From positions 6,792 to 70,791 of the IMG/VR virus record IMGVR_UViG_3300027762_000008: DNA of 64,000 bases, one strand, 5' to 3'. The notes under the pieces were generated by a model. That model was not told the origin of the DNA and did not search any database. It worked only from the letters and a program-made list of their open reading frames with translations. The stretch comes from a virus. This document shows positions 9,575 to 63,262 of the stretch, piece after piece (position 1 is the stretch's first letter; each line of letters opens with the position of its first letter). The position numbers were made by a program, and so were the translations under genes.

Positions 9575-12500
9575 TTATGCTGGATTAGAAACTGAATCAA
9601 CTGTTCCGCCGATAATGCAGACGCGGATAGACTTTGTGCTACCATATTTGTTTTTGATTGTGAAGTCATTCGAGGTCGCACTTTTATATACGGCATACGT
9701 ACTTCCCGTGTCGGTTATTTCGAAAATAGAGGAAGGGTCAGCAATCTCAACAACGGTCGCTGAAATATAACTCAGGAAAAACGTACCTGAGTTACCGCTA
9801 TTGTCTGTTATCACAACCATGTAGCCTGTGGAGCCGCCGTTCATTGTTACTGTGATGGCTTGACCAGTCGTGAGCGTTGTCGCCGTATTACTTGTGTTCA
9901 TGCCGACGGAAGCGACGTGTGCAGAAGCTCCAGCAGAAGAAGCTCCAACTATGCGGGTAGCGTTTGCCGCAGGCCCAAGTGTCCATGCGCCTGCATTTGA
10001 TATACCTCCTAGATTAGTAAAAGCAGAGTCATTCGCTGACGAATAAAAGGTTAATATGGTTCCGGATGGCTGTATTGCCCAAACGTTATTAGTAGCGTCT
10101 ATTGTTCCGCTATTAATCCACTTTAACATCGGATAAGAGCCAGCCCCATCATTTCTTAATAACTTAACAAGTGATCCATTTACTGTATGTGTCAAAGCTC
10201 CACTGCTACTAGGTCCAAGCGTCCACGCACCTGCATTTGACATGGAGCCAAGATTGTTAGTAATGAGTCCCTTTTTTAAGTCTGCCGTAGAAGAGGAACC
10301 AAATACTAAACCGTCGAAGCCAGCAGTAGCTCCCGTGCCGATTGCAACATAATTAGTTCCATAACACGCAGCAGCCAGAGAAATTCTTCCTTTGGTAGCA
10401 GTTCCTCCAATAGTTCCGTAAACCGATTGAAAGAGAAACGGTGTTCTTGTCGTGTCTTCATTCACTGAAGCATCGGTGGGCATGGTGTAGTCGGCATTGG
10501 TTTGCTTGTTGGCAATGGCAAATACGCCGTTACTTGTGTGTGTGGCGGTAGCTGTGGTGCCGCTCGCTCCAAGCGTCCATGCTCCTACTGCTGAAACTTT
10601 GCCCACTTCATCTGCGTCAGCATCCACACCATCATTATCTTGATTTGCATAAAAATAGATAACAGCAGTAGCATCATTTGCGTTCGCCTGACATTCGATT
10701 GCTCCACCGGTATATGTAGCTTCTGCGCGACCATCTCTCGACCCGGACGTTACTCTACAGTTTGAGTAAATTCCCGTTGTGGAGTTTGGAACCAGCGTTG
10801 ACACTGGGGTTGATGCCAACATGTTGAAGCCGGTTCCGTTAGCTGGCCCCAGCGTCCATGCGCCTGCATTTGACACTAAACCTAATGCCTGTGTATAGGA
10901 AGATAGAGCCGCTGGTGTTCCAGAAGCGTCTCCATTTGTGGCCCTAAACTCAAAAGAGTTCTGAGCAGCTAATGTTCCCATGAACAGGGCCGTCGCACGG
11001 ACGTTTGTTCCTGTTGTGTACGCCACGTAGCTATTAGCAGACTGCGATGCTGAATAAAGATTCTGTCCTATTACTAGACCTGTTCCGGAATACTGCGAGG
11101 ATATGGTGGCGGCATAGGAGGAATTTCCAATTCTCATATGATTTACGCCACTAGACGAACTTCCGGTAAGGGTCAGAACGGTTGGAAGGTCTACTCCACC
11201 GGGCCCAAGCGTCCATGCGCCTGCGGATGAATATTTGCCTATATCAGTAGAACCGGCGTAGAAGGTAAGTTGCTTTGCAGCTCCGATGTATGATAAAGAG
11301 CTTATCCAGTTTTCTGACCCGTCTGCCTTGCTTCCTATTCTTACGATACCACCATTACCTGCTGTTGCGTTTTCAGCATCAAACGAGACAATAAAGTCTC
11401 CAAATGCACTTCCTTGTTCACCGCGAAGAATATGCCCGACAGTGCTTACCCCGCTCGGCCCAAGCGTCCATGCGCCTGCCGTTGTAGAATAGGCATGGAC
11501 ATTCGTTCCATCTGCAGATAACTGTAATTGAGCGGTGCTTGTAATATGCCCAATGGAAAACTTTGCTGTATCCGCGAAAAGGTCTACACGAGCGCCGCCG
11601 CCTGCAGAGCCCGTGATACTAATTCTGGATGCTGCTCCGGTTGCGCCGAAAGCGCCAGATAAGCCAGTGCCGCTAGCTGCTACCGTTGCGTCTTTGAGCA
11701 GAACACCATCAACCGTCACGCCAGCCGCAGAGGTGTACTCACTGATGGTGTCCGCCGCGACGCTAACCGCGAACTTTTCAGCCAAAGCATGATATTGCCC
11801 CGCTACGGCAATTCTGCGGGTGTTCCCAGCTTCTGCTGTGTTCAGCACCGTGGTTCCGTTGCGTGTGTAGGCTCCTCCTGCAGCAAGGTATCGATACCAA
11901 GTATCGGTTGAGAAAACGTAACTGATCGTGGCGTCTTTCCCGCTCGCCGCTTCTGCTGCAGTCACGTCTGTAAATCGATTTGCCGCTACCTGATCCCAAT
12001 TGGCCGCATCGGTGGCCCACGCAGCCGATGCCGTGTGCGCGGTGTTCGCTCTCCATATGCCGCTATTGAAGAGAACCACATTCCCAATCCGATACGTGCG
12101 CCCGGTAGTCCATGCTTGCAGTGAGTCGTAATCGTCCAGGCGGTCGAGAGCGAGCTGTACACTCGTTTCTGTTGCGCTAAGCTCTCCGTTGAAGTTTGAA
12201 GTATCTGTGGTGACCGTTCCAGCGGAGGAGCTTGAACCACTCGCGAAGTTTACACCGGATACTTGCTTGGCTGGAGTTACTGTAGTTATCGTTCCAGTAG
12301 TGAGAGAATTTCCAGCTCCACCTTGCATTGTGATGAAACCAAGATTGATTACTTCCAAACCTCCGCTGGCGACTGTCGGAAAAGACGCAACTGTGTTGGC
12401 TATGATCTGGTTGGCCGCAGCCGATGGACCATTGTGCTCTACGCTATCTGGAACAAGAATATATTGCGCTATCTGATCCCCAGCCGAATCACTTAGGTTG

Positions 12501-14155
12501 TTACTGGCATAGACCCCGACTCGCATGTTGACGTATTTGCCGTTGGTAATTCCAACAAAAGAAGTTCCACTTTGCCTACCGCTAGGTATTGTGGTACTTC
12601 CGGAATTATAGAAGGTGGCCCCACTAGCTCCCGTGTACAAAACTTTAATGGAAATTGGGTCTACACCACTATCGGCAACCGTAGTATTCAATCCATGATC
12701 AAAATAGGTGGAAGCTCCCACCATTTTTACGGTTCGACTACCTGCCACCAAAACCGTTAAAACGGCATTCGAATCGTTCTTAAGTGTAGATCCTTTGGCA
12801 TTATGTTCATATGACGACACATCTGCCGGGAACGACACGGGATGCGTTTGTTTACTTACCGCATAATTGGTGCCGTCGGAATATATGGAAAATAGTAAAA
12901 TCTTATCACTAAAAGATGGATCGGTTGTCTGCTGGATTAGTCCATCATCGTCAATGTAAATGAAATACGCCGTAAAGTCAGCAGGAAGGGTCACAGTCTG
13001 GGGCACTGCCCACGATACTGGAGAGGAGCGGACAAGACCGATTCCCGCTCGTAATACTGTGAACTCTCTTGTTCCAGCGTTGTAGGAATAATAGGCTCCT
13101 GTTCCAGACCATTGGACAAAACCAGACTGAGATAGATCGTATGGAGTCACAACGCAAAGACCAGATCCGGTCTTTCCGTAGTTTCCCTCCATGCTCATAA
13201 GCCAATCTTTTTGAGTGTCCGTTGCGCCCACGATAGATGCGTAAATGTTGGCAAAACCTGTGATCCTCATCGAACAACTGCTTGTGGTAAACGTTCCAGA
13301 GTTTCCACTTGTGTCGAGACACGTGCCATTAGCGGTACCGCCGCTGACTCCCTGCAAAACAAAACTACAATTCGATATAAGTCGCGGATAAACAGATGCA
13401 GATAGGATGCAAAAACCTTCTACTGTTCCAGAGAAGGCAGCCTTGGTGTTTATCACTGTGAGGTTATTTGCGTAGAAGTTCAGGCTTGCATCTGCTGAGT
13501 TCTCATAGCACTTAAGAAAGCCTGAAGCTGATGCCGCTTGCAATAGTATGGTACTATTGGTGAAGAAAATTCCCTGTTGTGTTGAAGTTCCACTCGTGGC
13601 GAGAGCATTGATAGCTTTAGTTGATCCGTCAAAGGTACTGGTTACAACCACATAGCATGCAAAAAAGCTACTTCCATAAGGGCTAGTTGTCTGTGCGAGC
13701 GATACTGCGTTAAAGGCATAATCTCCGGCTGTAGTAACGTTCACAAAGTAGTCGTTTGCGAGAATTGAGCCTGTGGCGTTCAGTGCGCTCTGTCCATCTG
13801 CTGTAATGGTGTACGAATGGTTAATACGATTGAGCAGAACCCACTCTAATCCGGTTGTGGTTGACGTGATCGTTCCCACAATCGTAGGAGCTGCCGGCCC
13901 ATTGCCTTTCCCTACTAGAGCCACGTAAGGTTTTAGCGTGATATTCTCCACATACGTCCCTGAATAAATCTCAATGACGTATGGTTTATTGATGGCGGCA
14001 TCTGTAACGGCATTAATCGCGGATTGAATGGAGGTATACTGTGCGCCTCCGGCTGCACATACGGTTACTGTTTGTGCCTTGTCCATTGGAAAGCGATCAA
14101 TGTAGCCAGTACTAGCGTTATAGACGTAACGGGAGGGGGATGGTGCGATAGTCAT
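9575..14155 (-). CDS. tail fibre/tailspike with N-terminal pectin-lyase-like beta-helix, CBM5/12-like module and GAWTLG-delimited modules
   Basis: 1526 aa, G/S/T/A-rich. YTSIQSAINA...IEIYSGTYVENI (beta-helix cap); AWTTGRTYRIGNVVLFNSGIWRA (CBM-like); six GAWTLG repeats. Confidence 0.85.
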   Translation of the reverse strand: MTIAPSPSRYVYNASTGYIDRFPMDKAQTVTVCAAGGAQYTSIQSAINAVTDAAINKPYVIEIYSGTYVENITLKPYVALVGKGNGPAAPTIVGTITSTTTGLEWVLLNRINHSYTITADGQSALNATGSILANDYFVNVTTAGDYAFNAVSLAQTTSPYGSSFFACYVVVTSTFDGSTKAINALATSGTSTQQGIFFTNSTILLQAASASGFLKCYENSADASLNFYANNLTVINTKAAFSGTVEGFCILSASVYPRLISNCSFVLQGVSGGTANGTCLDTSGNSGTFTTSSCSMRITGFANIYASIVGATDTQKDWLMSMEGNYGKTGSGLCVVTPYDLSQSGFVQWSGTGAYYSYNAGTREFTVLRAGIGLVRSSPVSWAVPQTVTLPADFTAYFIYIDDDGLIQQTTDPSFSDKILLFSIYSDGTNYAVSKQTHPVSFPADVSSYEHNAKGSTLKNDSNAVLTVLVAGSRTVKMVGASTYFDHGLNTTVADSGVDPISIKVLYTGASGATFYNSGSTTIPSGRQSGTSFVGITNGKYVNMRVGVYASNNLSDSAGDQIAQYILVPDSVEHNGPSAAANQIIANTVASFPTVASGGLEVINLGFITMQGGAGNSLTTGTITTVTPAKQVSGVNFASGSSSSAGTVTTDTSNFNGELSATETSVQLALDRLDDYDSLQAWTTGRTYRIGNVVLFNSGIWRANTAHTASAAWATDAANWDQVAANRFTDVTAAEAASGKDATISYVFSTDTWYRYLAAGGAYTRNGTTVLNTAEAGNTRRIAVAGQYHALAEKFAVSVAADTISEYTSAAGVTVDGVLLKDATVAASGTGLSGAFGATGAASRISITGSAGGGARVDLFADTAKFSIGHITSTAQLQLSADGTNVHAYSTTAGAWTLGPSGVSTVGHILRGEQGSAFGDFIVSFDAENATAGNGGIVRIGSKADGSENWISSLSYIGAAKQLTFYAGSTDIGKYSSAGAWTLGPGGVDLPTVLTLTGSSSSGVNHMRIGNSSYAATISSQYSGTGLVIGQNLYSASQSANSYVAYTTGTNVRATALFMGTLAAQNSFEFRATNGDASGTPAALSSYTQALGLVSNAGAWTLGPANGTGFNMLASTPVSTLVPNSTTGIYSNCRVTSGSRDGRAEATYTGGAIECQANANDATAVIYFYANQDNDGVDADADEVGKVSAVGAWTLGASGTTATATHTSNGVFAIANKQTNADYTMPTDASVNEDTTRTPFLFQSVYGTIGGTATKGRISLAAACYGTNYVAIGTGATAGFDGLVFGSSSTADLKKGLITNNLGSMSNAGAWTLGPSSSGALTHTVNGSLVKLLRNDGAGSYPMLKWINSGTIDATNNVWAIQPSGTILTFYSSANDSAFTNLGGISNAGAWTLGPAANATRIVGASSAGASAHVASVGMNTSNTATTLTTGQAITVTMNGGSTGYMVVITDNSGNSGTFFLSYISATVVEIADPSSIFEITDTGSTYAVYKSATSNDFTIKNKYGSTKSIRVCIIGGTVDSVSNPA
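9972..11485 (-). repeat. six ~29-bp in-frame direct repeats within the tail fibre gene
   Basis: Plus-strand consensus GGCCCAAGCGTCCATGCGCCTGC(ATTTGA) starting at 9972, 10212, 10566, 10845, 11202 and 11457. Confidence 0.9.
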
Positions 14156-21546: not shown

Positions 21547-23352
21547 ATGCCAGTTATTGCAGAGAACAACGCATTTTCAAATGCGCAGTTTAAGCAGTCA
21601 GACCTGCTTAAGTTTATCCAGGAAAAAGGTTCCAAGACCCTGTGGCGTGTTGTCTCGGGTTTGGACTCGGTCACCAAGAAGGGCGAATGGCCTGGGGGTA
21701 AGGAATTCCGTTACCACATGACCGTTGATGCCGGTGGTGGAGCGTTCAGTGGTTTGAACTCCGTTGGTGGCGTGTTTGCCAACCCTGACCGTGCATACGG
21801 AATTCAGGCGTTCATGGTTCCGAAGTATCAGACGATGACCATGTACTTCGACCGAATCATGGGCAAGTTGACTGACAGCGATGCCAAGGCTTACTTGGGC
21901 TCGATGAAGATGGAATATGAGCAGAAGACTCTGTTCCAGAAGAGCTTCACGAACCTCCAGCAGATTATGGACGGCACAGGCCGTGTTGCTACTCCTATCG
22001 GTCTTGGTGCATCCAACACCGCAACTGGAAACAGCTTCACGATTGCCAGCCCTTCGACTCTTCTGAAGGTCAAGCTCTCTTCGCTCGACACCGCAACCGG
22101 ATCTGCCGCCTACTGTATGGAAGGTATGGTGGTTTCGTTCCTGTATCCGAACTATGACGACGATGACAATGGCACGGTTGCCACCACGAAGGCTGACTGC
22201 GTTCCTCGTTTCGCCGTTCTCGGATTCAAGGCTTCTACGGTTCGCTCGTATTACGATGCTTTCCGTGTTGTCCGTATCAACCAGTCGGCGAACGAGGTTC
22301 TTCTCGCTCCCGCACGTAAGGCCGCTGGAGACAGCGACACCTACACTCCCTATACGACGGTAGACGCCTCGCACATGGTGCAGCAGGGCGGTTCGTCCAC
22401 GATGTGGTGCGGCGGAACAGGTACTGTGACTGTCACTCCGTGGCAGGGTCGTACGACTGCTCTCGGTGCTCCGACGGATACCAATGGTCTTACTGGCGGT
22501 GCCTCCCTCGGTCTTGATCACTTCTTCAGCTATGCCGGATTCACCAGCTACGTGGCTGCGGACCATCCGACAGCGACCTTCTTGGTCCTCACCGGGTATA
22601 TTCCTACGGGAACCGTTGACTACGGCATCGGCAATTCGGACTTCAGCTCGTTCTCTGGGGCTACCACCACCAATGCTGCAGCGGCTCGTGCGATTCTCGG
22701 CCTCGGCTGGGATGCGAACGTGGACTCTGCCTACGGTGTTACCCAGGACGTGTCGCTTGTGAACCCGTACCTGATGACTGGTATCGAATCGTTGATTTTC
22801 AATGATACGAACCTCGTTCAGGGCGTTCCTCGCTACAGCATCCAGCAGTACCTCCCGACGAAGAAGGACTTGAACTCTCAGGCTCTGACGTTCAACGGAC
22901 TCTTCGCTGGTGTGGCTGAGCACTATGTTCGTAACCGTGACAAGGATCCGAACTCGGCAGACGTGATTCAGTGGAACCTTCTCGACATGAACCCGCTGGT
23001 GTACACCTCGCTCCTGTCGCTCTCTGAGGCTGACCGCCGTATCACCGATGACAAGGGCATCCGTGGTACCTCGTGTAAGACCATTCAGGTGGGCAACAAG
23101 AAGTTCGAGCTGAACATGAACTCCTCCATGCGTCTTGACCGTATCGTCGGTATTCCGAAGGATGCGATCCAGATGAAGGGTGGAACTCTTGACCCGGTGG
23201 AAGTTGATGGCCAGCGTCAGTACATGGCTCTCAACAGTTCTGCTCGAAGAGTTAACGCGTATGAGCAGTATTACACCATACAAGGAGAACAGTATGTTGA
23301 GAATCTCCGCGACTGTCTGTTCTTCAGAAACTTTACCATAAGTATACTGTAA
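21547..23352 (+). CDS. major capsid protein with a large internal insertion
   Basis: Follows the scaffold; strong AAGGAGG RBS; biased codon use; HK97-like spine helix ending MDGTG, with the core resuming at LMTGIESLI. Confidence 0.8.
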   Translation: MPVIAENNAFSNAQFKQSDLLKFIQEKGSKTLWRVVSGLDSVTKKGEWPGGKEFRYHMTVDAGGGAFSGLNSVGGVFANPDRAYGIQAFMVPKYQTMTMYFDRIMGKLTDSDAKAYLGSMKMEYEQKTLFQKSFTNLQQIMDGTGRVATPIGLGASNTATGNSFTIASPSTLLKVKLSSLDTATGSAAYCMEGMVVSFLYPNYDDDDNGTVATTKADCVPRFAVLGFKASTVRSYYDAFRVVRINQSANEVLLAPARKAAGDSDTYTPYTTVDASHMVQQGGSSTMWCGGTGTVTVTPWQGRTTALGAPTDTNGLTGGASLGLDHFFSYAGFTSYVAADHPTATFLVLTGYIPTGTVDYGIGNSDFSSFSGATTTNAAAARAILGLGWDANVDSAYGVTQDVSLVNPYLMTGIESLIFNDTNLVQGVPRYSIQQYLPTKKDLNSQALTFNGLFAGVAEHYVRNRDKDPNSADVIQWNLLDMNPLVYTSLLSLSEADRRITDDKGIRGTSCKTIQVGNKKFELNMNSSMRLDRIVGIPKDAIQMKGGTLDPVEVDGQRQYMALNSSARRVNAYEQYYTIQGEQYVENLRDCLFFRNFTISIL

Positions 23353-24127: not shown

Positions 24128-25042
24128 ATGCCAGCAATTGGATTATCGAGACTTCAACAGGACACACTTGACCGGCATCTGTCTGCTGGCAAGCGGTCCA
24201 ACAACGGACTCCTTCTCTCTGCTATGCAGTGCGGAATGATTGAGACTTTTCAGGGCAAGGGACTGGTTCACTATGTGCGTACCGACGTGGGCGGCGGCGA
24301 TGAAGTCGATGTCGCCACGTATATCACCGGACTCACCGGTCTGGATGCAGACTTGGATCCTTACTACGTGACTGGAACGGGACACCTCTTGGCTCTTCGT
24401 GGGTCGGATTCAACCCCCACAGCTTCCACTGTAGGTATCCCTGTGGCTTCTACCACAGCGTCCTCCACGGGTGTTCTTCGCCTCACGAATCGTGACGTCA
24501 ATGCAGCGAACGTGGCGGGTGTTTCTCAGGAAGGAGCTCTCTGGATTCCAGGGTCCACTCCTTGGGTTGCTCAGTTCGAACTTACCGTTCCGAAGAATGC
24601 TTATGCTGTCGGCGTGGCGTTCCAGGAAATCGGATTCATGGGAGCGGGCGATCTCGCCACGCACTTCGTTGATGCATCGAAAGAGTTCGGATACGTGGAT
24701 GGAACCAGCGACGTTGCTTTCGTGGCTCTGAAGTTCTACGCCGGAAATGGATACCTTCGGATTCGTCCTGCCACGGCGGGAACGATTCTCACCAGTGCGG
24801 CGTTCCCGATTCCGACTTCCGGAAAGCACACCTATCGCATTGAGAACAACTACTCGACGACTGGAGGAACTCCCACAGTCTCTTTGTTCATTGACGATGC
24901 GTTCGTGGTTTCGATAGCGGCTACAGTAGCCAGCGGACTTCAGTTTGCGGCCCGTACATGTCACGGAGCGAGCTATGCCGCAGCTACCCATACGCCTCCC
25001 GTGTTCGACATCGACACTGTCGTTGTCGCCATCAACCCATAA
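24128..25042 (+). CDS. virion protein, possible head decoration/lectin-like fold
   Basis: Beta-rich; GKHTYRIE...VSLFIDDAFV resembles concanavalin-like folds; follows the capsid gene. Confidence 0.6.
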   Translation: MPAIGLSRLQQDTLDRHLSAGKRSNNGLLLSAMQCGMIETFQGKGLVHYVRTDVGGGDEVDVATYITGLTGLDADLDPYYVTGTGHLLALRGSDSTPTASTVGIPVASTTASSTGVLRLTNRDVNAANVAGVSQEGALWIPGSTPWVAQFELTVPKNAYAVGVAFQEIGFMGAGDLATHFVDASKEFGYVDGTSDVAFVALKFYAGNGYLRIRPATAGTILTSAAFPIPTSGKHTYRIENNYSTTGGTPTVSLFIDDAFVVSIAATVASGLQFAARTCHGASYAAATHTPPVFDIDTVVVAINP

Positions 25043-28408: not shown

Positions 28409-31400
28409 ATGTCGATAAGACCAGATCCCGCGACACTTGTTCCAATCAACAGTTATCGAGGGGTAGATGGATCTGTGTCTCCATTACGTTTGGCTGATGG
28501 ATTTTGCCAAGAGATGGAGAATGCGGACATCAGCACTGCAGGGGTTATCAAGAAGCGGGGCGGATATGTTACTTGCGGAGGAAGATTTCCAGTAAACGGC
28601 ATGCCGGTTACTCCAGGATCTCCTACTTATTACTCATTGTATCGAAAAGAATATCCAATAGGTAAGATACCATATTTGACTCGAGCGTATCCTCTGTCAT
28701 GGTCTGGAGGGCTCCAAGAAATTGTAAAAAATATTGGATACATAGATCTTCCCACGAATTTTGGTGATTACTACTTTTTTGCTGAATTTTGGGCGGATGC
28801 CGAGTACCCAGTAACCGAAAATACAATTTTCGTGCATGGAGCGGCCTCAGAAAGTGTTTGTCGTTTTGCTCCGATAAAAATATACGGGAATAAATATGCC
28901 ATGTTTAGCCGCAATGTGTGGCAAGCATGGAGCGGATTTAATCTTGCCCCAGCCATTACTTGGGCTGCATTCTTGGGATCTCCGTATCAGGATTTTGATA
29001 CCGGCACGTACAAGACAATAGGCACCCAAGGATTTGTTTGGCCTATGTTCCCTATCGATTTGATCGCTCAAATAGAGAGACTTAGTGCTACTAGCGCAAA
29101 AATATACACCTCACTCCCTCTCCCCAAGTACACCCCCATTCGCCTACTTGGTGGTGTGGCTGGAATGATAACAGACGCGATTGGACCACGGCATTACCCT
29201 ATAGAAAACTGTTGTTACGTTTCGGATACGGATAATCGGACGTATTTTACCATAACTGAAATGTCTGGATTGAGCGCGGCACGTTTAGACACCCGTCCAG
29301 ATTCTACTTTTTTGTTTAGGTATGCTTTACATAAGAAAGTTGATTCTACGATAGATGGCACACCTTTGGTAGACACCTATATCCTAAACTCAGACAATTC
29401 TATAGCTACCCGGACAGCGTATTTGCCCTGGGGTGTGTCCACCTTTGAGTATGGAACTGGAGTGGATATTGGAGATGTCCAAACAGTAGAGGCGTTCACA
29501 AACTTGGCTGAAGGTCAGCAAAACATTGCTGCTTTGGTGAACGGACGAGTCTTCAAAGGCCCATCCGAATATGAATTTCTTACCGCACTACGTGTGGATC
29601 AACCTCCTGCATTTACTACATATGGGACAGTATCTGCAGTAAATGGAATATTCACGGTGCCATACCCCTCTGCCTCTACTTATTATCGAGTAGGGGATGT
29701 TGTCGAGATAAAGAAAATAGATCTTTTGGGGGAGGCTACTTCGATTACGCAATTAGATGTGGCTGGAACGACCGGATCGGAATTGCTGCTGTCATCGGAT
29801 GGACTTACTTCTCTTTCATATGAATATGGGGAAGTATGGAATTTTACTCGTGAGGATACGCTTATTCCCGGAGCCACGATCGTGACTAATTCTCCCTACG
29901 GAGTGGTTTCTCCGTATGATCCTGTTCATGGGGATACCATATTCTTTGGGGGGCTGGGGTCTGGGTATTCCGCGCATGAGCTCTGGTATACGAATGAATT
30001 GGTGGCAGAGACTCAGTATAGGCTAGTCTTCAAGAATTCCGTAGTATTCTCCTCTTCTGAATTGGTGTATGTGCAGAAAAGGTGGGGAGAGGTTGTTTTC
30101 CCGGTCGAAGCAAATCCCATGCTTCCGTCAGTTGGTTCTCCTGATTTCTCCACCATCACCTCAAATGGCATATCTGCGCGCCCCTCCACAAGTGAAATAG
30201 TCTCCAGTGTTTCGTACTCAGGCTCTTCATTTTTCTCCACAAAAGATGACGGTGTCGTGGTGTTCAATGGAACAGAGGTATACTCACTTAGGCTAGAAAG
30301 ACCCCAAGTAGAAACCATACGTTCTCTTCCAGGAACTAAAGGTAGATTTCCAATTAGAGTAGGAAGTAACGGGGAAAAAATAGGAAAACAAATAGAAGCG
30401 TTATTTGTATATTCATACTATGACTCCAACAACAGATTGATGGAATCCGAACCATCGTCAGCGAGTGAAGGGATTTTTTCTCCGAATGCTGCAAGAGATG
30501 GCAGTGATTATTCCGAATTGGCGGAATATCGAATTTCTCCTCCCCCCACTCTGTGTGGGCTGGAGACTAGCAGATTAACGATAGATGTTTACGTTAGAGT
30601 AGTAGATCCAACTACTTCTTCTGATTTAGACTATGTTCTGTATCGAAGAGTATCTGCAATCATGGGTTCTGCTACTTCGATTATTTTGGGGGACATATCC
30701 CCTGAATATCTATCTGGGAATAAACTTATCTATACCCTCTCTGAGGGTAAGTCACACCTGTCCTCCCCTCTGGCTAAGTTCTTAGTTTCAGCAGCCGGAA
30801 GACTGGTCGCTCTGAATTGCAGGTCTAAAGACTATTGGAAACTAAAGATACTAAAAGTATTTAATTCAGATAATACTTTTGGCGCGTATACTTCATTTCA
30901 CTGGCCGTGTAGAGACAGATACGCTGGAGGTGGTGCCTTTGATCCGGTATTCTACACTTTTCCTTTGGGGGTAGTCGAAGTCAATCCCGGAGGAGGATTA
31001 CCTAAAACCTTTCGTCCAGCTAAAGATAAGACGGAAATCACAGGATACCCGGATTCACTATATCCTGAGTTTACTACTTATTCTTTAGATTACACCAATC
31101 TTTGGAACGGAACTACTGGATGCTCAGTAAATGGGGATACGTTGGCCACGTCCCCCCGAGTGAAACTCAAACTTACGTATGGGGACGTTTCAGATCGTTT
31201 CAATGTAACCACCACTGTGACTACTGATCAGTCTGTGAAATTCCGATTCGCTGGCAGTGCCACCCCAACGGGTTTGCCAATAGATTTCCTCGGAGACACT
31301 TTCAAATCACTTACTAGTCCCCCAGCTAGTCCGACCACCCTTCGTGGTTCTACTCGATGGACGGATGCCTCTCTGGACTCCACCGGCATTCCAATAGCTC

Positions 31401-34555: not shown

Positions 34556-37500
34556 ATGGGACTAAGAACTCCTTCGGCATGGCTGCCGCAAGATACTCGA
34601 ACCCAAATGGCCCAAGGCAATATCTCTGGGCTCACGCCAAAGCAGGAGGATATGTCCTTTGCTCGTAGCCCTTTGGCGTCGCAGCAGCAGAATGAGGTCA
34701 AGCCCAAGGAAGAAAAAGGAACCACTGCCGGGGAACGGGCGCAGACAGAACAAGAAGGTCGACAGGAACAACAAACCCAAACCTCGCAGCAAGCTCGACA
34801 GCAGCAGCAGGCTTCTCCCGTAAGTATGGCGGTGGAGAACGTAGCAAGTAAACTGTCCAACTTCTCTTACACCCTGCGTGGATATGTGAACCAATTCCTC
34901 CAGGGAGGTGCGTCAGCTGTTGGGCTGGGGCAAGCCAAAGAGCAGTACAAATATGACCCGGACTCAAAAAAATACGTGCTGTCCATTTCCGAACAGCAAG
35001 CAGACATCGAACCTGTTCTCCAAGAAAAGATGCGCCAGCAGGAGAAACTTAAACAGAGTTTAAGTCCCTTCGCTCAGCAGGTCGGAGAGAAGCTCGTAGG
35101 AAAACAGTTTGGGCAAGTCCTGGAAGAGCAGTTCGGAGAAGACCCACAGATCTCCTCTCTCCTTCAGACGGTGACCGCTCTTCAAGATTTAGAAGCACGA
35201 GGACTTTCAGGTTCCCCGGAAGCAAAAGCTCTCGAAGCGCAGATCCGAGAACAGGATCAGTTCGGAATGGTTTCAAGTCTCCGAGAGGCGATGCAGTCGT
35301 ACAACAAACTCATGGGAGTCGATCCCGCCGGAGAAGAAACCAAGTGGTATGGGGATCAAGCCGACACAGGATACTCCGCACTGGACATCGCCCAGTTGAG
35401 TTCGGATACTCTCCGCACGGAGATTGAAAAAGCCCGAGAGTTCAGCTCCGGATTATTCGGAGGAGACTTCGAAGAGAACCTCAAGAAGAAATATGACACG
35501 GAATCCGCAGAAGGACAGGCGGCAGCGAGGAGAAAAGAGGCGGTACACTCCGAACTCATGTCCGGATTCCAGAGCTATATGGATGAAGCGGCGGGAGGAT
35601 TTCAGTCCGCTAGAGACACCATTGACACCGCATTCAAAGGAGCGGCTGAAGCAGTAAAAGCAGAGCTTGCATTGGACGACAGTGCGGGTGGTGTTGCCGC
35701 TATGAAATGGTTTGAGAGCTTCCAGGAGGGGGGAGATTTTACCTCCATCCTGTATAACGCCATGAACGATCCCAACAGCGGACTTGGGGTAGAACAGCGA
35801 CAGGCCATAGCAGACTACATTGGTAAGGCCGGGAGTGGCTCCAAAGAAGGCCAGCTGTATACTTGGATTAACTCTCTGGGCACCACGGGAAAGATTCCGA
35901 TTAACATCCAAGGAGAAGACGGATTCGAGAAAACTCAGTTCGTCGAGCCCTCGGTCGAAGATAAGCTGCAGATCAATGCTCTCATGAAAGATAAAACTCT
36001 GTCTCCGGAAGAGAAGACGGAGAAGATGCACGAACTGATCCGAGGCATCGGAGTGGATACTGCGACCAGCATTGGGTCCACGATAGACACAGCCATGGAA
36101 ACTGCAAATCGCACGGGTAGCTTGGCTGCGGGTGTGGTGGCTCTGAACCGTGGAATCGTAGAGAGTCTTAAGACATTCGCCCAGAGTAAGACGGAAGACT
36201 TTGTCCGCCAGTCGCTGCAGATAGACGACAAAACATGGAATGCATTGGACGCCGACGCCAAATCTAGCCTTATTTCCCGTACGCTCACCAACATGACTCC
36301 AGAACAGAAGGAGCAGTTGGTAAGTATTTTTCACGAGAAACAGAATCAGGAAATAACCAAAAAAGACACCTATATCAATCAGTGGAGATCGTCGCTGAAG
36401 GGAAGACTCGCGGAGATTGATGGAGATCCGGAGAAAGGCATTCCCGGAGTTCTGGCGAACGTACAGCAGCAGATTGACGATTTAGGTGCGCAGAAGAACG
36501 GAATCTACACCAAGTTCGCCAGCAAAGTGCAAGACGTTCTGCGCCGAGATGTGTCCCGATTTAACGCCATCTTTCAGCAGGTGGGGAATAACCCTTGGAT
36601 ACAGGCAAACGTCCCAGGCCCAGAAAGAGCTAAGCTGGCAGAATTGATTGAATGGCAGGAGAAACTCAGCCGACTGAATTCTATGGATCCGTTGTTGGTG
36701 TCTAGACTTACTGGAGGAGCTTACTCTCAGATAGACCCGGTAGATTTAGCTGTCTCCGGAGCCAAGAGCAAAGATTTCACCGCAATGAATAGGCTCTACG
36801 ACGCATACACCAAATCCGTAAATGCTCCAGGTACCTTGGACAAAATGCCTTCTGTGATTACGGATCACATCAATAATCTCTATTCCCAATACAAGTCCGA
36901 TCCAAACGGCATTCCCCCCGGGATGCTTACAGTTATGAACGTACTTGGGGAATACGAGAACACCGACGGGGTTCTCCGGCAGAACCTGCAGCAGGTGCAG
37001 GAAGCTCGAGACAAGATCACAAATCCTGAAACTGGGTATCTTGCGCAGGTCGACGAACTCAGCAAGTCAGCTGACTTCCCCTCTTTCACTCCGGATCAGA
37101 TCCTCGGATTCAGTATGGGTGTGGCGAAGGGAGTGGAAACCGGGGTCGACTGGATTACCGGAGACAAACAACCCCCCTCTATCAAGGATATTGATTGGGG
37201 CAAGCTTGGTGGAGAGATTGAGGACATCATCACCAATTGGGCGGGATACGGTCCGGATGCAATCAAAGATGCTCTCGCGGACAAACTCGGATTCCCGGCG
37301 GATTCAATCTCACTCAAAGGCGGTGTTCCCCATATTCAGATGTCTAATGGAGAGTATATCCCGTTCTCTGATGCGCTTATTACGAAGCTCAGCTCAGCAA
37401 CAACAGAAAATCTCACTCCGATGGTTGCAGCATTGCCTGGAGAATACGCGGGGCCTGACATCGCAGCTCGTGGGGATATGCTTACTGGGGCCATGGCGAA

Positions 37501-58392: not shown

Positions 58393-59865
58393 TTAAATGT
58401 TCTCTTCGCTAATGTGGTCTACTACCAATATATCTTCGTCTTTTGGCACATCACTCTCCCGTCCAATTCCAATCCAGTAGCCGGTGTTCCCGTTCCGTTT
58501 TTCGATTTTCATTCCCTTGTCCAGTAGGTGTCTGTCCATCTTGTGGAGCAAAGCCTGAAGTGTGGATCCTGTTGGTTTTGGCCGAAGCCCGTTTATGTAT
58601 AGGCTCTCTAAATCTTTGCGTTTGATGCTGATCTTGGGGTGGAACACCAAGTGATGTGCTTCCAAACAGGAATAGAAACTCTCAAGGTCGCCGGACTCAA
58701 TCTCGTCCCAGTTCATCCTGCTGCTGTCAATCTCATGGCTCCTGCTCACCCGGGCGTATGCTTCCCGAGCCTTGAACAGAAGATGCTTCTTCTCATCAAT
58801 CAGCCCTTGCTCCCAAGGAAGATCAATGCCCACCGAGGAGTCATCCGTCCTTGGAGACAGCTTCACCATGAGAAGCCGGGAGCGTTCGTTCTTGACGCTC
58901 GAAGAGATCTTTGGGTAGTAATTCGACATGATGATAACCTTGGAGTACGCATTCGCCGTGTACATCTTCTTGCCTTTGGGGTTGATTGTGATGTTGTCCC
59001 CGCCTGTGATTTTGTGAATCTCCTCATGCACCACCGCTCCATACATCTTGCTGTCGGAGTCCACGAGAAGTCTCTTGCCGATGCGTCCTTCCGCTCCGTG
59101 GTTGTTGGATAGGGTGGCAGCATCAAACGTCCCACAGGCATTTCCCAACCAAGCAGCAAGGGTTTTAGACACCGAAGTCTTTCCTCCTCCTCCGGCGTCA
59201 CGCACCCAGAGAAGTTGTCGGCCTCTGTCTTGCACACAGAAGACAGACCAAATGAACGCCAGGAATTCGTCCTGCAAATCTACACGGGCAAGGAATTGAT
59301 CCCAACATGGAGTTGGTCCCTCTTCGACTTCCAGTGGAATATAGTGCTGACACGGTTCAGAAGAAGAATTGGAGCAGTAAGGAGCATCGACACCAAACTC
59401 AATTCCGGGGATCATTCTGGCAGAATCGAGTATGTAGCTCAAGGTTTCTTTGAGTCTATTCTTGGTCAGTTTTTTGGACGGGAAGATGTCCATCATTCGC
59501 ATTACAGGCCCATGGATTAAGGGCAGAGAAGTTATCTGAGACTCGAGAGATTCCACATCCGCTGGGAGTCGAATCATCTCGTATGCTTGTTGTGATTTCC
59601 TGACGTACAGAAACCTAGCGGTACTTCCCGGAAGCTGTGGGGACATGCGAATCTGGGGGAAGATTTCTTTCTCGAATATCTGTACGATTTTCTGTTCTGC
59701 CTCCTTCTTCTCGGCTACCTGTTTATCCTTCTCCTTCTCCTTGAGAGTATCACTGAGTTGTTTATACAACACATTCACTTCAGCTCGGGAAGCGGTTTTC
59801 ATTTTTTCAAGGATTTCAGAGATCTCTGGGTCTGTCGAAGACTCTTGACTCGGAGCTTGGGTCAT
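58393..59865 (-). CDS. D5/P4-type SF3 helicase (primase-helicase family); no primase domain recognised
   Basis: Walker A AGGGGKTS, GKRLLVDSD, KITGGDNITINPKGK, IIMSNYYP, and a C-terminal winged-helix-like GYWIGIG. Confidence 0.85.
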   Translation of the reverse strand: MTQAPSQESSTDPEISEILEKMKTASRAEVNVLYKQLSDTLKEKEKDKQVAEKKEAEQKIVQIFEKEIFPQIRMSPQLPGSTARFLYVRKSQQAYEMIRLPADVESLESQITSLPLIHGPVMRMMDIFPSKKLTKNRLKETLSYILDSARMIPGIEFGVDAPYCSNSSSEPCQHYIPLEVEEGPTPCWDQFLARVDLQDEFLAFIWSVFCVQDRGRQLLWVRDAGGGGKTSVSKTLAAWLGNACGTFDAATLSNNHGAEGRIGKRLLVDSDSKMYGAVVHEEIHKITGGDNITINPKGKKMYTANAYSKVIIMSNYYPKISSSVKNERSRLLMVKLSPRTDDSSVGIDLPWEQGLIDEKKHLLFKAREAYARVSRSHEIDSSRMNWDEIESGDLESFYSCLEAHHLVFHPKISIKRKDLESLYINGLRPKPTGSTLQALLHKMDRHLLDKGMKIEKRNGNTGYWIGIGRESDVPKDEDILVVDHISEENI

Positions 59866-60092
59866 GGTACGACCTTCTTATTGGGAGAGGATCGATCCAT
59901 CGCACCACGTTCAGGTCGGTCCTCTCTGTTCACTGCCTCCTTCGTACCTCGCCCCCTTTCTCCCGTCAAGAATCCCGACCCCTGAAATAATAAAAAAATC
60001 TGAAAAAAAGAGAATCGAGAGGAGGGGGAGGGGGGAAATTGCTAGAGTCTGATATAAGATTAGAATGCATTCAAAAATATGTATATACATTA

Positions 60093-60629
60093 TTAGATAG
60101 TGCGATCGGAGGGATTTTTCCGATATTCAGTGAGAAGTCCTGTTGACCATGCGAACCAGAAAGCTATCATTGCTGCGTCTATCTCTCCGTCTTTGCGCAG
60201 TTTCCCATCTGGATACACGATGTTATAGCATTCCATCGTCTTTGCTTTGCTGTCACCAGAGTCTTTTGATTTTCTGCACAGGCTGTGAATCACCCGAGTC
60301 CAGGTGGAAGGGTATACCAAGGCAATACCTATACCTTGGAGTTGGAGACAGGCATGGACTATACCCCAGTTGATACCCACAGTCCCGACAGAGCCAGCAG
60401 CATTGCCTCCCAGGAACAGGGGTTGCTCGAGCACAGCTATGTCAGGGTTCAGTCTTTGGAGAAGAGAGGATAGGGAAATGGGATCGACTCGGCTATGCCC
60501 ATCCTTGGTTACGATAGGCATTCGTATGGCCTCGGAAACGTGTCCTGAGACTAAGAGGACAAGAGCCCCTTTGATGCCCGGGTCTATGCCTAGGATGCGG
60601 CGGGGGTTTCCACACAGACGGGCTGGGCT
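60093..60629 (-). CDS. ruvC: RuvC-like Holliday junction resolvase; 5' end lacks a canonical start and is probably reached by frameshift
   Basis: In-frame ILGIDPGIKGAL (60596-60561) lies upstream of the first ATG (60521); then AVLEQP, VYPSTW and KDGEIDAAMIA. Confidence 0.85.
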   Translation of the reverse strand, partial: SPARLCGNPRRILGIDPGIKGALVLLVSGHVSEAIRMPIVTKDGHSRVDPISLSSLLQRLNPDIAVLEQPLFLGGNAAGSVGTVGINWGIVHACLQLQGIGIALVYPSTWTRVIHSLCRKSKDSGDSKAKTMECYNIVYPDGKLRKDGEIDAAMIAFWFAWSTGLLTEYRKNPSDRTI

Positions 60630-60787
60630 TTTTTTGGCGGGAGGGTTTTCTCCAATGCCTCAATTCGTTTCTCGAGCCTCAGGATGGCGTCTTCCCACTT
60701 GGGGGCTGTCTCGATAGGCTCGACCAGCAAATCTTCAACCACGGCTTCCTTTGCCACTACTGTGGGGGTCTTCTTGGGTCTTCCCAT
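60590..60787 (-). CDS. 65-aa protein (GRPKK motif plus short coiled coil), probable frameshift leader of ruvC
   Basis: GGAGG RBS; MGRPKK...RLEKRIEALEK; contains A-AAA-AAA in frame. Confidence 0.7.
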   Translation of the reverse strand: MGRPKKTPTVVAKEAVVEDLLVEPIETAPKWEDAILRLEKRIEALEKTLPPKKAQPVCVETPAAS

Positions 60788-60788
60788 G

Positions 60789-61175
60789 TCACTGCGCCTC
60801 CGGGGATGCTATCCCCTGCTCTGAAAGGTTCTTCTGTCTCTGCCTCAGGATCTCCTTGCGAAGCTGGGGAGAGTCTCCGTCATGCAATACCTTGCCAGCG
60901 TAATGCCTTCTCTGTTCCTCGGAGAAGGTACCTATGCCTTTGTCCTCTGCCAAGCCTATCTCAATGGCACAGGTGGGATCTTCCAAAGCGGTAAACTTCT
61001 TCCTGAATCCCTTGCTGTCTGTGAGTTCGTTGCAGTCGGACATGTAATTGAGCTGCGACCAAAACTCGTAGGTGATCTCCATGGGAGTCCCACAGCAATC
61101 ACCAGGGTGAGCCGTCTGATCCATCGCCACACGTTTGCATGTGCTGCACTTGTAGTCATGTGTTACCATTACCAT
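60789..61175 (-). CDS. FmdB-like zinc-ribbon protein
   Basis: HDYKCSTC...CCGTPM. Confidence 0.7.
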   Translation of the reverse strand: MVMVTHDYKCSTCKRVAMDQTAHPGDCCGTPMEITYEFWSQLNYMSDCNELTDSKGFRKKFTALEDPTCAIEIGLAEDKGIGTFSEEQRRHYAGKVLHDGDSPQLRKEILRQRQKNLSEQGIASPEAQ

Positions 61176-61176
61176 A

Positions 61177-61581
61177 TCACGGCCCCTTACACCAATCAGT
61201 TACGGCCTTTGTGCCCCCATCGTAGGGCACAGCCAGTTTATTTTTCAACAGTTCAGTGGCCACGTCAAGCTTCCCGATGCGTACTCCGGCATCGATTCGA
61301 AAGTATTTATCCCGGCTTGGCTCAACCAAATCCACCTTTTGATTGAGCACCAAGGTGGTCACTAACCCCTTGGCAAGCTCGGCCTTGTGAGCCTCACAAG
61401 GGTTATCTGAATACATCTCTGGAGCATCGATACCCCGTATACGAACCGGCATATCCTTTCCGAACAGAGGATGCACCGACAGAATGTTTACCGTAATAGT
61501 GTCTCCATCGTACACCTTTGTCACTTCCACACAGGGAAAGAGCCCCAGTCTAAGGGCGCACACCACCCATAGTTTGGTCAT
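61177..61581 (-). CDS. thermonuclease (staphylococcal nuclease family)
   Basis: VYDGDTI, VRIRGIDAPE, RDKYFRI, LAVPYDGG; start MTKLWV. Confidence 0.92.
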   Translation of the reverse strand: MTKLWVVCALRLGLFPCVEVTKVYDGDTITVNILSVHPLFGKDMPVRIRGIDAPEMYSDNPCEAHKAELAKGLVTTLVLNQKVDLVEPSRDKYFRIDAGVRIGKLDVATELLKNKLAVPYDGGTKAVTDWCKGP

Positions 61582-61760
61582 CTCTCCTCCCCGAAAGGAA
61601 TAGTCTCGGCGCAAGTATCCACCCGGTCTTCAAACGAGCGGTCAGGATACTCAGCAAGGGCTTCGTAGGCACACACGTGCAGGTCAACCATACACTGAGA
61701 CACTGCTGCCGGTTCCTGCAGGAAGGCACAATATACAAACAGCAGCTCTAAGACCGACAT
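61578..61760 (-). CDS. small Cys-containing hypothetical protein
   Basis: GGAGG RBS; ATGA-coupled to the nuclease gene. Confidence 0.55.
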   Translation of the reverse strand: MSVLELLFVYCAFLQEPAAVSQCMVDLHVCAYEALAEYPDRSFEDRVDTCAETIPFGEER

Positions 61761-61987
61761 GAGAAACCTCCACCGAACTTGCGTTTGCTGCCGCTCTTGA
61801 GAATCAGTTCCATAAGATCTGGCCTGTTGGTTTTAATCCACCTACGCAGCGTTTGGTCTGAACCGATACCGAGACTACGCATTATCTGGTTGATGCTCTT
61901 CCCGTCCAGCGCCATTGCTTCTATCTTCTTCTCGTTCTGTGCTATGAATTCTGGCGTCGTTCGGGATCTCTTGCTTGTCACGTGCAT
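61748..61987 (-). CDS. HTH protein
   Basis: GKSINQIMRSLGIGSDQTLRRWI. Confidence 0.6.
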   Translation of the reverse strand: MHVTSKRSRTTPEFIAQNEKKIEAMALDGKSINQIMRSLGIGSDQTLRRWIKTNRPDLMELILKSGSKRKFGGGFSCRS

Positions 61988-62540
61988 AGAGTCGCCTAGA
62001 TATAATCTCGGTAAATTCACGTTTGCTCTCTCCTTTCATCTTCTCACAAATTCCTGGAGCCTCTTGGTTCCACTTATTTACGGCATCTTCCAACGTCTGG
62101 ACATACTCTTTTGGTTGCCCGAACAGCACACAGAATACCTTCTTCCTAAGCTTAGGCTTCGAGATCATCTTCTCCAACACATCATAGTAACCACGGTACC
62201 GATAGCTCTGCAGCGCAGCATACACGTGGCCAAAGGTGATGGGGATTTCAAACACCAGCTCCTCAAGCCTTCGGTACTTGAAGATGGCCTTGACCAGCTC
62301 GAGCATTCTCTCCTTCTCCGTTGAGGGAAGGGTGCGAATCACCGGGCGGTCGAGGCCGTTGTACTCAATGTAAATCGGGCAGGGCGAGGTAAAGATTTCA
62401 GCGGGAGCTCTCGTCTTCCCTGTCTTGCTCGCCTTGGTTTTGAACAGGCTCCACTTGTTCTCCCCTGTCTGCCTGACTTCCAAGGTGACCATTCGTTTGT
62501 CGGCACCGAAGTACCGAACCATGGTGGGATATGGGTTCAT
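61875..62540 (-). CDS. hypothetical protein
   Basis: 221-aa ORF, ATGA-coupled to the upstream gene. Confidence 0.65.
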   Translation of the reverse strand: MNPYPTMVRYFGADKRMVTLEVRQTGENKWSLFKTKASKTGKTRAPAEIFTSPCPIYIEYNGLDRPVIRTLPSTEKERMLELVKAIFKYRRLEELVFEIPITFGHVYAALQSYRYRGYYDVLEKMISKPKLRKKVFCVLFGQPKEYVQTLEDAVNKWNQEAPGICEKMKGESKREFTEIISRRLYARDKQEIPNDARIHSTEREEDRSNGAGREEHQPDNA

Positions 62541-63262
62541 TGTTTCTCCGGCGGCAGCACAAGGTCAGCGATTGTCTTCAGGTCGTGTACGTCCTGCTTC
62601 TCTGCCAAGTGACACAGGGGATCGTAAGGACACGCCAAGCAAGGGGACTTCTTCGGGGTGTCGAGTCCCTTCGGCCTGTCCGGGAGTTGGTTCCGGTTGA
62701 AATACCCAAAGAGCTCTTGGATGCCATCCACCACAGGAACCGGGGAATAGGAGGTCAGTCCCATGTTGACGGACACCTTCTCATTCTTCGTGCTCACAAA
62801 GAAGGGACGATAGAAGGGCTTGAGGGTCTGGCTGAAGTAGTACAGCGTCTTCGGCTGCACGTAGTGGATGTGGCACACCTTGCCTTGGTGAAGCTGCGAA
62901 TACCACCCGGCAATGAGAACGTCCTCGGCATTCGGCTGCTGCCGGGCGTTCAAGTTATGGGCAGCGGATGCGGACAACACCGGAACCGCAACCACCGGGA
63001 GTCCTCGGGCGTCGGTGGGAACAATGGCCACCCACGTCCCGGTGGTGGTCTGCTCAATGATGGTACGCTCTCCCACCGAGAATACCTTGGCGGCAGCGTC
63101 AATCATCGCTTCCATCACGGCGTCGATCATCTTGAGTCCCCTCTGGTGATGGATGCCTGTCTTCTTGTACAGCACATACCGAGGGCACCTGCGAGGGCTG
63201 TCACACCTGAACGTCTTGTCATCCTTGAAATAAAATGCGAGGTCGAAAACCTTAACTTCCAT
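62537..63262 (-). CDS. Cas4-like Fe-S protein, apparently lacking the nuclease motif
   Basis: N-terminal CPRYVLY and C-terminal PCLACPYDPLC (1+3 Cys staple); no (D/E)xK motif at the expected position; AGGAG RBS. Confidence 0.65.
   Translation of the reverse strand: MEVKVFDLAFYFKDDKTFRCDSPRRCPRYVLYKKTGIHHQRGLKMIDAVMEAMIDAAAKVFSVGERTIIEQTTTGTWVAIVPTDARGLPVVAVPVLSASAAHNLNARQQPNAEDVLIAGWYSQLHQGKVCHIHYVQPKTLYYFSQTLKPFYRPFFVSTKNEKVSVNMGLTSYSPVPVVDGIQELFGYFNRNQLPDRPKGLDTPKKSPCLACPYDPLCHLAEKQDVHDLKTIADLVLPPEKQ

Follow-up and report, generated by a model that had tools for sequence, protein, structure and literature searches.

How does a phage produce a junction-cutting nuclease whose reading frame has no canonical start codon ahead of its catalytic motif? 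This question is raised by a resolvase locus on the minus strand of the window analysed here, a stretch of 64,000 nucleotides (nt) comprising bases 6792–70791 of the 70,791-base IMG/VR virus record IMGVR_UViG_3300027762_000008, whose completeness is estimated at 97%. The resolvase frame is open from a TGA at 60662–60660 to a stop at 60093, which gives a stop-to-stop translation of 188 residues (P0001), and it is the −1 frame relative to a small upstream gene, open reading frame 1 (ORF1). The earliest ATG, GTG or TTG in this frame is the ATG at 60521–60519, with none from the TGA at 60662 to residue M47, and the upstream part holds only four near-cognate codons (ATT 60656, CTG 60617, ATC 60596 and ATA 60587). 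That this resolvase gene lacks a canonical start is a genuine irregularity, reproducible and apparently conserved. Our leading explanation, which stands about as good a chance of being right as of being wrong, is that the resolvase is made by a ribosomal −1 frameshift as a trans-frame extension of ORF1. Two features define the problem.

60576–60596, minus strand: the motif ILGIDPG, encoded by ATC CTA GGC ATA GAC CCG GGC; predicted strand β1 with the putative catalytic Asp, D26 of P0001

60519–60521, minus strand: internal ATG (M47 of P0001), preceded by GAGG and eight further nucleotides (GAGG N8); taken as the start by gene callers

The encoded protein was identified by profile and structure comparison. 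P0001 matched the Holliday junction resolvase family phrog_1770 with an E-value of 2.5e-17 over residues 20–168, residue 20 being aligned to profile position 4, and phrog_159 with an E-value of 2.3e-7. When the 13-member family profile (A3) was compared with the Protein Data Bank, it retrieved MOC1 at 3.9e-20 and the Deinococcus radiodurans RuvC structure 7w8d at 2.4e-5; plant chloroplast MOC1 proteins are the nearest solved structures of the family, far ahead of bacterial RuvC. The AlphaFold2 model of P0001 has a mean predicted local distance difference test score (pLDDT) of 89.9 and a predicted template modelling score (pTM) of 0.84, and places β1 at residues 21–26, while residues 1–20 have low confidence and no secondary structure. 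Foldseek comparison of this model ranked ZmMOC1 first (E 1.2e-9, target TM-score 0.77), with further matches to RuvC of Deinococcus, Pseudomonas, Thermus, E. coli and Lactococcus phage 67; identity to the solved structures is just 14–25%. In A3 (13 sequences), D26 is nearly invariant and E78 fully so; in A4 (5 sequences), D157 and D161 do not vary. Alignment to MOC1, combined with the known biochemistry of RuvC, suggests that these four are the catalytic acidic residues. Comparison with Pfam returned no family for P0001 at E ≤0.1; PF02075 was touched by 2 of the 13 family members, at a best E of 0.022, and the NCBIfam model NF000711 gave 13 bits against a cut-off of 163, which was not passed. 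Because these values lie below the Pfam and NCBIfam cut-offs for RuvC, we assign P0001, by its sequence relationships, to the RuvC superfamily (RNase H fold) as a MOC1-like phage resolvase, and not as an orthologue of bacterial RuvC.

Evidence that the part of the frame ahead of the first ATG is translated came from a second strain. The metagenome contig L002 is ~96% identical to the window over 4.1 kilobases (3.5% diverged). Between the two, resolvase codons 23–46, which precede the first ATG, differ at 11 sites, nine of them synonymous (8 of the 10 changed codons are synonymous), and codons 47–188 carry 11 synonymous and 4 non-synonymous sites. Because its changes are mostly synonymous, we conclude that the start-less N-terminus is translated in the resolvase frame and is under purifying selection. 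A product initiated at ATG 60521 was considered and rejected: it would lose β1 to β3 together with the catalytic Asp, and the codons upstream of it are under selection. The public gene calls for this clade (P0003, P0004 and P0157; 142, 137 and 153 amino acids (aa)) begin at an internal Met or Leu position past the catalytic Asp, and are wrong for the reason that their start lies downstream of that residue. The GAGG N8 ahead of ATG 60521 probably attracts the gene callers. Automated annotation will go on missing the active enzyme, whichever mechanism holds.

A candidate point of entry into the resolvase frame lies within ORF1, 13 codons ahead of ILGIDPG. The features concerned are the following.

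60590–60787, minus strand: ORF1 (P0002), 65 codons plus TAG, from the open reading frame listing and its translation

60797–60801, minus strand: GGAGG, ribosome-binding site of ORF1, 9 nt 5′ of its ATG

60791–60789, minus strand: TGA of the gene before ORF1, 1 nt ahead of the ORF1 ATG

60629–60635, minus strand: A_AAA_AAA heptamer, the proposed shift site, read by ORF1 as CC A AAA AAA G (CCA AAA AAA GCC), in −1 register

60093–60629, minus strand: −1 frame after the shift, 178 codons plus stop, covering a predicted disordered linker of ~10 residues and the RuvC/MOC1-like domain

Under the frameshift explanation, ribosomes would initiate at the well-placed ORF1 ATG (60787), and most of them would translate 65 codons and terminate at the TAG at 60592–60590. 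A minority would slip −1 on CC A AAA AAA G (60635–60629), both Lys tRNAs re-pairing on AAA, and would run through the short disordered linker into the RuvC/MOC1-like domain. Two products would result, namely the 65-aa protein and a 231-aa protein joining ORF1 residues 1–53 to P0001 residues 11–188. A junction-cutting nuclease that could be harmful, equipped with a basic N-terminal motif and a helix, would thereby be supplied at a low, fixed dose. The slip, its efficiency, the role of the purine-rich GGAG and hairpin described below, and the function of the N-terminal part are what we infer here. The ribosome-binding site of ORF1 is strong, and no near-cognate candidate has one at a usable distance; past the heptamer, the −1 frame stays open for 178 codons versus 12 in frame 0. 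The preliminary description, made from the letters of the window, had proposed a RuvC-like resolvase produced by a programmed −1 frameshift. Strand reading and translation of the open reading frames reproduced all its coordinates, from ILGIDPG, the first ATG and the open frame to the 65-aa ORF and the heptamer register, and likewise the GGAG 14 nt upstream of the heptamer and the 231-aa length (53 + 178 codons). As regards its reading of the locus, membership of the RuvC superfamily and an N-terminus that lies upstream of the canonical start and is under coding selection are upheld, and the shift itself remains the conditional part.

We estimated the chance occurrence of such heptamers from 64 ORFs of the window with 19,895 in-frame positions. 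These contain 54 heptamers of the form X_XXY_YYZ, 31 with Y = A or T, and 5 A_AAA_AAR, which include the shift site and two in a doubtful ORF within an intergenic region. For the ~21 codons from the upstream stop to ILGIDPG, the chance expectation is ~0.06 for X_XXY_YYZ, ~0.03 with Y = A or T, and ~0.006 for A_AAA_AAR. Four in-register A_AAA_AAN heptamers fall in credible ORFs, and a long −1 frame is opened only by the resolvase site (178 codons versus 4, 11 and 26). The other three lie at 34966–34972 (plus strand), 28726–28732 (plus strand) and 10271–10277 (minus strand), in ORFs of 1191, 1875 and 1526 aa; because their −1 frames close early, after 26, 11 and 4 codons, respectively, they do not look like recoding sites. 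Runs of seven A's as such are not over-represented in the window (6 versus 12.3 expected), and further runs in this phage are found at 27766, 32210 and 34966.

The seven-A run and the split frames are not an assembly error. L002 agrees with the window in the seven A's, the ORF1 stop and the frame offset. Additionally, Logan contigs of runs X2 and X4, which come from another study, cross the A7 run with no gaps. They differ from the window at 33 and 47 sites, exactly as many as L002 does in the stretches concerned (33 sites in 60084–61032), and since these counts are equal we regard L002, X2 and X4 as one strain variant assembled three times; run X5 covers 59160–59310 only. The comparison was made on assembled contigs, and at that level the homopolymer length on which the preliminary description depends is borne out. 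As to the conservation in relatives that it proposed to check, the offset and heptamer are kept in one strain of ~96% identity, where a pair of the predicted stem is lost, and at 50–60% identity the comparison extends to proteins.

The divergence between the two strains is uneven around the locus. The region ~60593–61040 has 7 changed sites in ~450 nt, versus ~5% in its flanks, and could reflect recent recombination or constraint. Within it, the 112 bases 60705–60594, covering the C-terminal half of ORF1 and the shift region, are identical in both strains, and no inference is drawn from them because they lie inside this wider block of low divergence (~61040–60593).

Next, we consider how far the arrangement extends beyond this strain pair. 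A word-based search with P0001 found two relatives only, P0003, which is the L002 copy, and P0004, at 60% identity. P0004 is called from the same internal Met as the window resolvase, and P0157, a member of the P0004 cluster found on a different contig of different origin, has its called start at the position of L33, downstream of GIDPG. Since gene callers normally use a canonical start ahead of the domain if one is present, the P0004/P0157 lineage most likely also has none, as judged from these protein calls. ORF1 itself begins with an invariant MGRPKK; a variable middle, a helix-like segment R-x-x-ALE-x-x-L, the residues KK and the tail QPVCVETPAAS follow. Two distant homologues, of 72 aa (P0155) and 68 aa (P0156), are ~50% identical to it, and P0154 is a further homologue. 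In the four-sequence ORF1 alignment, 13 of the last 14 residues do not vary (KK and QPVCVETPAAS, with an A/P position between them), versus 18 of the first 51, and the insertions and deletions fall in the middle. The invariant block starts at the proposed shift site and is the stretch that would be read in two frames under the frameshift model; with a start at ATC 60596, only the last two ORF1 codons would be double-coded. This invariance of the ORF1 tail is the pattern that would be expected if two frames, possibly together with RNA structure, constrain the same bases. The split arrangement accordingly appears, on protein evidence, to be conserved in relatives at 50–60% identity.

Searches for the DNA of these relatives were negative. 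The genome contigs contained none, the viral contigs held nothing closer than 29% identity and gave 0 matches to degenerate patterns for the conserved resolvase peptide and the ORF1 tail, the phage collection gave tblastn matches all below 60% identity and no blastn match, and the metagenome scan returned L002 only. At the level of families, a search of Pfam, PHROG and NCBIfam found no match for ORF1, which matches no helix-turn-helix (HTH) or transposase family; its atlas matches were all below 0.9 and its predicted structure was of low confidence. A complex prediction for ORF1 with the resolvase domain scored 0.01 against a mark of 0.32, which is evidence neither way.

Two candidate stimulators of a shift flank the heptamer.

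60650–60653, minus strand: GGAG (from TTG GAG, Leu-Glu), 14 nt 5′ of the heptamer; a possible Shine-Dalgarno-like stimulator

60576–60623, minus strand: predicted stem-loop of 12 pairs and a 2-nt bulge, whose 22-nt loop contains the ATC and TAG; 5 nt 3′ of the heptamer

The Leu-Glu behind GGAG and its spacing to KK are invariant in all four ORF1 homologues. GGAG was also considered as a start signal and rejected, there being no near-cognate codon of the resolvase frame 5–10 nt 3′ of it. As in the preliminary description, the stem begins 5 nt after the heptamer, and it is present in the minimum-energy fold; its 48 nt have a folding energy of −16.4 kcal/mol, within the top 4% of 6775 windows of 48 nt on the coding strands of the phage. 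The pseudoknot suggested along with it is unsupported: in the fold, the GGGG that was to pair with the loop pairs with the spacer GCCC.

A number of observations weigh against the frameshift explanation. GGAG is just a 4-mer and sits at the far end of the effective spacing for such elements. The stem is no better than its dinucleotide shuffles (z −1.29 for 48 nt and −0.34 for 69 nt), and the A-to-C substitution of L002 at 60587 disrupts a U-A pair with no compensating change, the L002 sequence refolding at −14.9 kcal/mol with z −0.68. The predicted stimulators are weak and unconvincing. The window/L002 pair gives ORF1 no positive coding signal of its own, with 3 non-synonymous changes and 1 synonymous change, and ORF1 ends exactly where the resolvase domain starts (ATC C TAG), like a coupled junction with a weak start. 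The distant lineage is known from proteins, and an A run encoding its KK and the placement of P0155/P0156 beside P0004/P0157 are presumed. The heptamer itself is not of the most efficient kind, as A_AAA_AAA is far less shift-prone than A_AAA_AAG in E. coli according to PMC5009743.

The family at large also weighs against the shift. An exhaustive search gave 1104 relatives of P0001 at E ≤0.001, and the motif census took the best 150 of these, 143 of which carry the regular-expression motif; the seven left out are P0004, which has no N-terminus, and six with variant motifs. The number of residues before the equivalent of Ile22 (n = 143) is ≤5 in 104, 6–12 in 24, 13–25 in 8 and >25 in 7. In 15 of 15 distant IMG/VR loci an ATG stands 3–4 codons ahead of that Ile, and the closest full-length relative, P0005 (52% identity), begins MIERVVGIDPG. 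A stand-alone resolvase gene is the family norm. No in-frame fusion of ORF1 and resolvase was found among the relatives, and comparison of longer proteins with the ORF1 alignment yielded nothing at E ≤1 among 8000 candidates, which is weak evidence. P0006 (49%) and P0007 (45%) carry basic N-terminal tails of 20–22 residues, which BLASTP aligns with the −1 frame of the window back to residue 12 (P0006) and residue 7 (P0007); this alignment speaks for the shift, but because the sequence is low in complexity it is weak evidence.

The serious rival, on balance an unlikely one in our judgement, is that the resolvase is a separate protein made from a weak near-cognate start or by reinitiation, with no frameshift and with the A7 run being coincidental. 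The preliminary description had named initiation at the in-frame CTG, ATT or ATC only as a refutation of its own proposal; we consider the ATC a contender in its own right. Its surroundings are as follows.

60584–60596, minus strand: ATC (60596–60594), the ORF1 stop TAG (60592–60590) and a second in-frame TAG (60586–60584); the ATC and both TAGs are retained in L002

The likeliest start would be this ATC, giving M-LGIDPG and a protein of ~167 aa by reinitiation after the TAG 1 nt downstream, CTG 60617 and ATT 60656 being less likely; a weak start would keep a dangerous nuclease scarce. The ATC corresponds to Ile22, taken as the first residue of β1, at the usual N-terminus of the family, where most relatives start 1–4 residues earlier and a few at it, although its coincidence with a conserved Ile is uninformative because any Ile codon is a near-cognate start. 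The junction ATC C TAG resembles the tight TGA C ATG junctions of the operon, the stand-alone form that this start would yield is the norm of the family, and the ATC and both TAGs outlast two L002 substitutions, one of which, C-to-T at 60593, is the sole single change of the Leu codon that is silent in both frames. However, no Shine-Dalgarno sequence lies 5–10 nt before the ATC, CTG or ATT: GGAA is 11 nt before the ATC, nothing precedes the CTG, and GAGG is 1 nt before the ATT. A near-cognate start would also leave unexplained the in-register A_AAA_AAA, for which ~0.006 was expected, and the invariance of KK and QPVCVET, residues that are single-coded under an ATC start. Furthermore, BLASTP and HMMER alignments to P0006/P0007 extend upstream of the ATC, albeit weakly and in sequence of low complexity. 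In short, the heptamer in register, the protein-level conservation and the boundary of the conserved block speak for the shift, whereas the stop/ATC geometry, the stand-alone norm and the missing fused homologue speak for the near-cognate start. Both could operate together.

The same 231-aa fusion might instead arise by stuttering of RNA polymerase on the A7/T7 run, with one A added in some transcripts, a mechanism that we consider improbable. A homopolymer of 7 is conserved, one added A leads to the identical protein, and neither the hairpin nor the GGAG, both weak here, would be required. Productive slippage of bacterial transcription mostly takes place on runs of 8–9 or more, and the strict X_XXY_YYZ register is required by ribosomal, not transcriptional, slippage. 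Finally, the split could be an artefact of a run whose true length is 8, or the locus could be a decayed pseudogene deprived of its start. Some technologies are prone to errors at homopolymers, and the gene callers give only a truncated 142-aa product. Against this, seven A's are found in the window record and in the L002, X2 and X4 contigs of a 3.5%-diverged strain, the start-less N-terminus evolves by synonymous change, the split state recurs at 60% identity on two contigs, and the catalytic residues are intact in a confident model (pLDDT 89.9). This reading is already largely refuted, and we consider it very improbable.

If the frameshift does take place, its layout would recall several known systems. 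In dnaX, an upstream Shine-Dalgarno-like element and a downstream hairpin flank an A_AAA_AAG heptamer, and the two products are gamma and tau. The locus here likewise has a purine-rich GGAG upstream, a predicted GC-rich stem 5 nt downstream and, if the shift occurs, two products with a common N-terminus. It differs in that the dnaX shift truncates its protein, whereas here a 65-aa protein would be extended into an enzyme without any other start; in that the heptamer ends in A, not G, with the GGAG 14 nt away as against 10 nt; and in that the stem is statistically unsupported and not conserved in L002. A closer parallel than dnaX is the OrfA-OrfAB arrangement of IS911 and the IS3 family, in which a −1 shift joins a small DNA-binding, coiled-coil ORF to a nuclease of RNase H fold that has no efficient start. 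An A-rich heptamer and a short and a long product with a common N-terminus would be shared features. Here, in contrast, the enzyme is a RuvC/MOC1-type resolvase in a phage replication module and not a DDE transposase, the resolvase locus has no inverted repeats or element ends, and ORF1 has no HTH or transposase family match. By this analogy, we tentatively envisage, as a possibility we think somewhat doubtful, that in a small clade of freshwater phages the resolvase is the downstream half of a −1 cassette, in which the abundant 65-aa form, with its basic MGRPKK motif and helix, would determine or oppose how the tethered nuclease of the rare 231-aa fusion, which shares that N-terminus, is targeted or dimerises. 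On this reading, the phage would have a built-in means of setting the stoichiometry of junction cutting while it replicates and packages its DNA, and recoding would here be seen for the first time in a phage enzyme of recombination or resolution.

Other comparisons bring out the differences more than the likenesses. Family members of the MOC1/RuvC type normally have a Met 1–4 residues before ILGIDPG, and the window clade has none. Genes with near-cognate starts, such as infC with its AUU, are comparable to the locus, where a weak start would likewise keep the gene low and the ATC stands at the expected N-terminus, but the resolvase ATC has no ribosome-binding site and a slippery heptamer is present instead. 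The Lys-Lys A_AAA_AAN heptamer in −1 register is itself of the dnaX type, with respect to the shift-site facts given in PMC5009743. The G/GT-type tail assembly chaperone is a conserved −1 frameshift of phages (PMC7911831 and PMC3711429). Its fixed ratio of short and extended product is comparable to what is proposed here, but it belongs to another module and function and both of its frames have long been recognised, whereas here the downstream part is normally a stand-alone enzyme.

The preliminary description knew of no frameshift in a resolvase. Literature searches agree with it, having found no paper that describes a frameshift in a resolvase gene, and neither the available part of PMC5009743 nor the available main text of PMC3711429 ties resolvase, RuvC or Holliday to frameshifting. 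The exception is the PRFect paper (PMC10885494), which in one passage names RusA/RuvC, within its false-positive predictions, as 'known to contain a frameshift', citing a paper of 1991 on ruvC of E. coli.

With respect to its setting, the locus belongs to a tailed phage, and the proteins of the window include a large terminase, a portal, a family-A-like DNA polymerase, a helicase and an exonuclease. The resolvase lies in a densely packed minus-strand operon in the order nuclease, 128-aa ORF, ORF1 and resolvase, whose stop/start junctions are tight and of the TGA C ATG type, for example at 60791–60785; its neighbours are a DUF5906/primase-like protein (58393–59865) and an SNase-like nuclease (61177–61614). 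A promoter and terminator scan of 59700–62700 found nothing bearing on the question of the resolvase start. Between the resolvase and the primase-like gene is a non-coding gap of 227 nt (59866–60092) with two T7/A7 runs (59992–59998 and 60003–60009) and a C-rich tract. In the L002-type strain, 59960–60084 is swapped for 120 unrelated letters, and the gap is possibly a promoter or terminator region exchanged among strains. The contig of run X2 has a 483-nt stretch (59358–59842, minus strand) swapped for 543 other letters; this is the N-terminal part of the 490-aa DUF5906/primase-like gene and points to mosaic exchange of its N-terminal domain between strains. Elsewhere, several large or conserved-looking ORFs have no PHROG family at E ≤1e-5, namely 9575–14155 (minus strand), 21547–23352 (plus strand), 24128–25042 (plus strand) and 61875–62540 (minus strand), one of the large ones being of 1526 aa.

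The locus provides a clean test bed, since the product of a frameshift (~25 kDa) and that of near-cognate reinitiation (~18 kDa) are easily told apart and single silent mutations distinguish the two. If the frameshift explanation is true, programmed frameshifting in phages would no longer be confined to tail chaperones, capsid proteins and a few polymerases but would include a DNA-resolution enzyme. It would also be a natural case of a toxic nuclease dosed by recoding.

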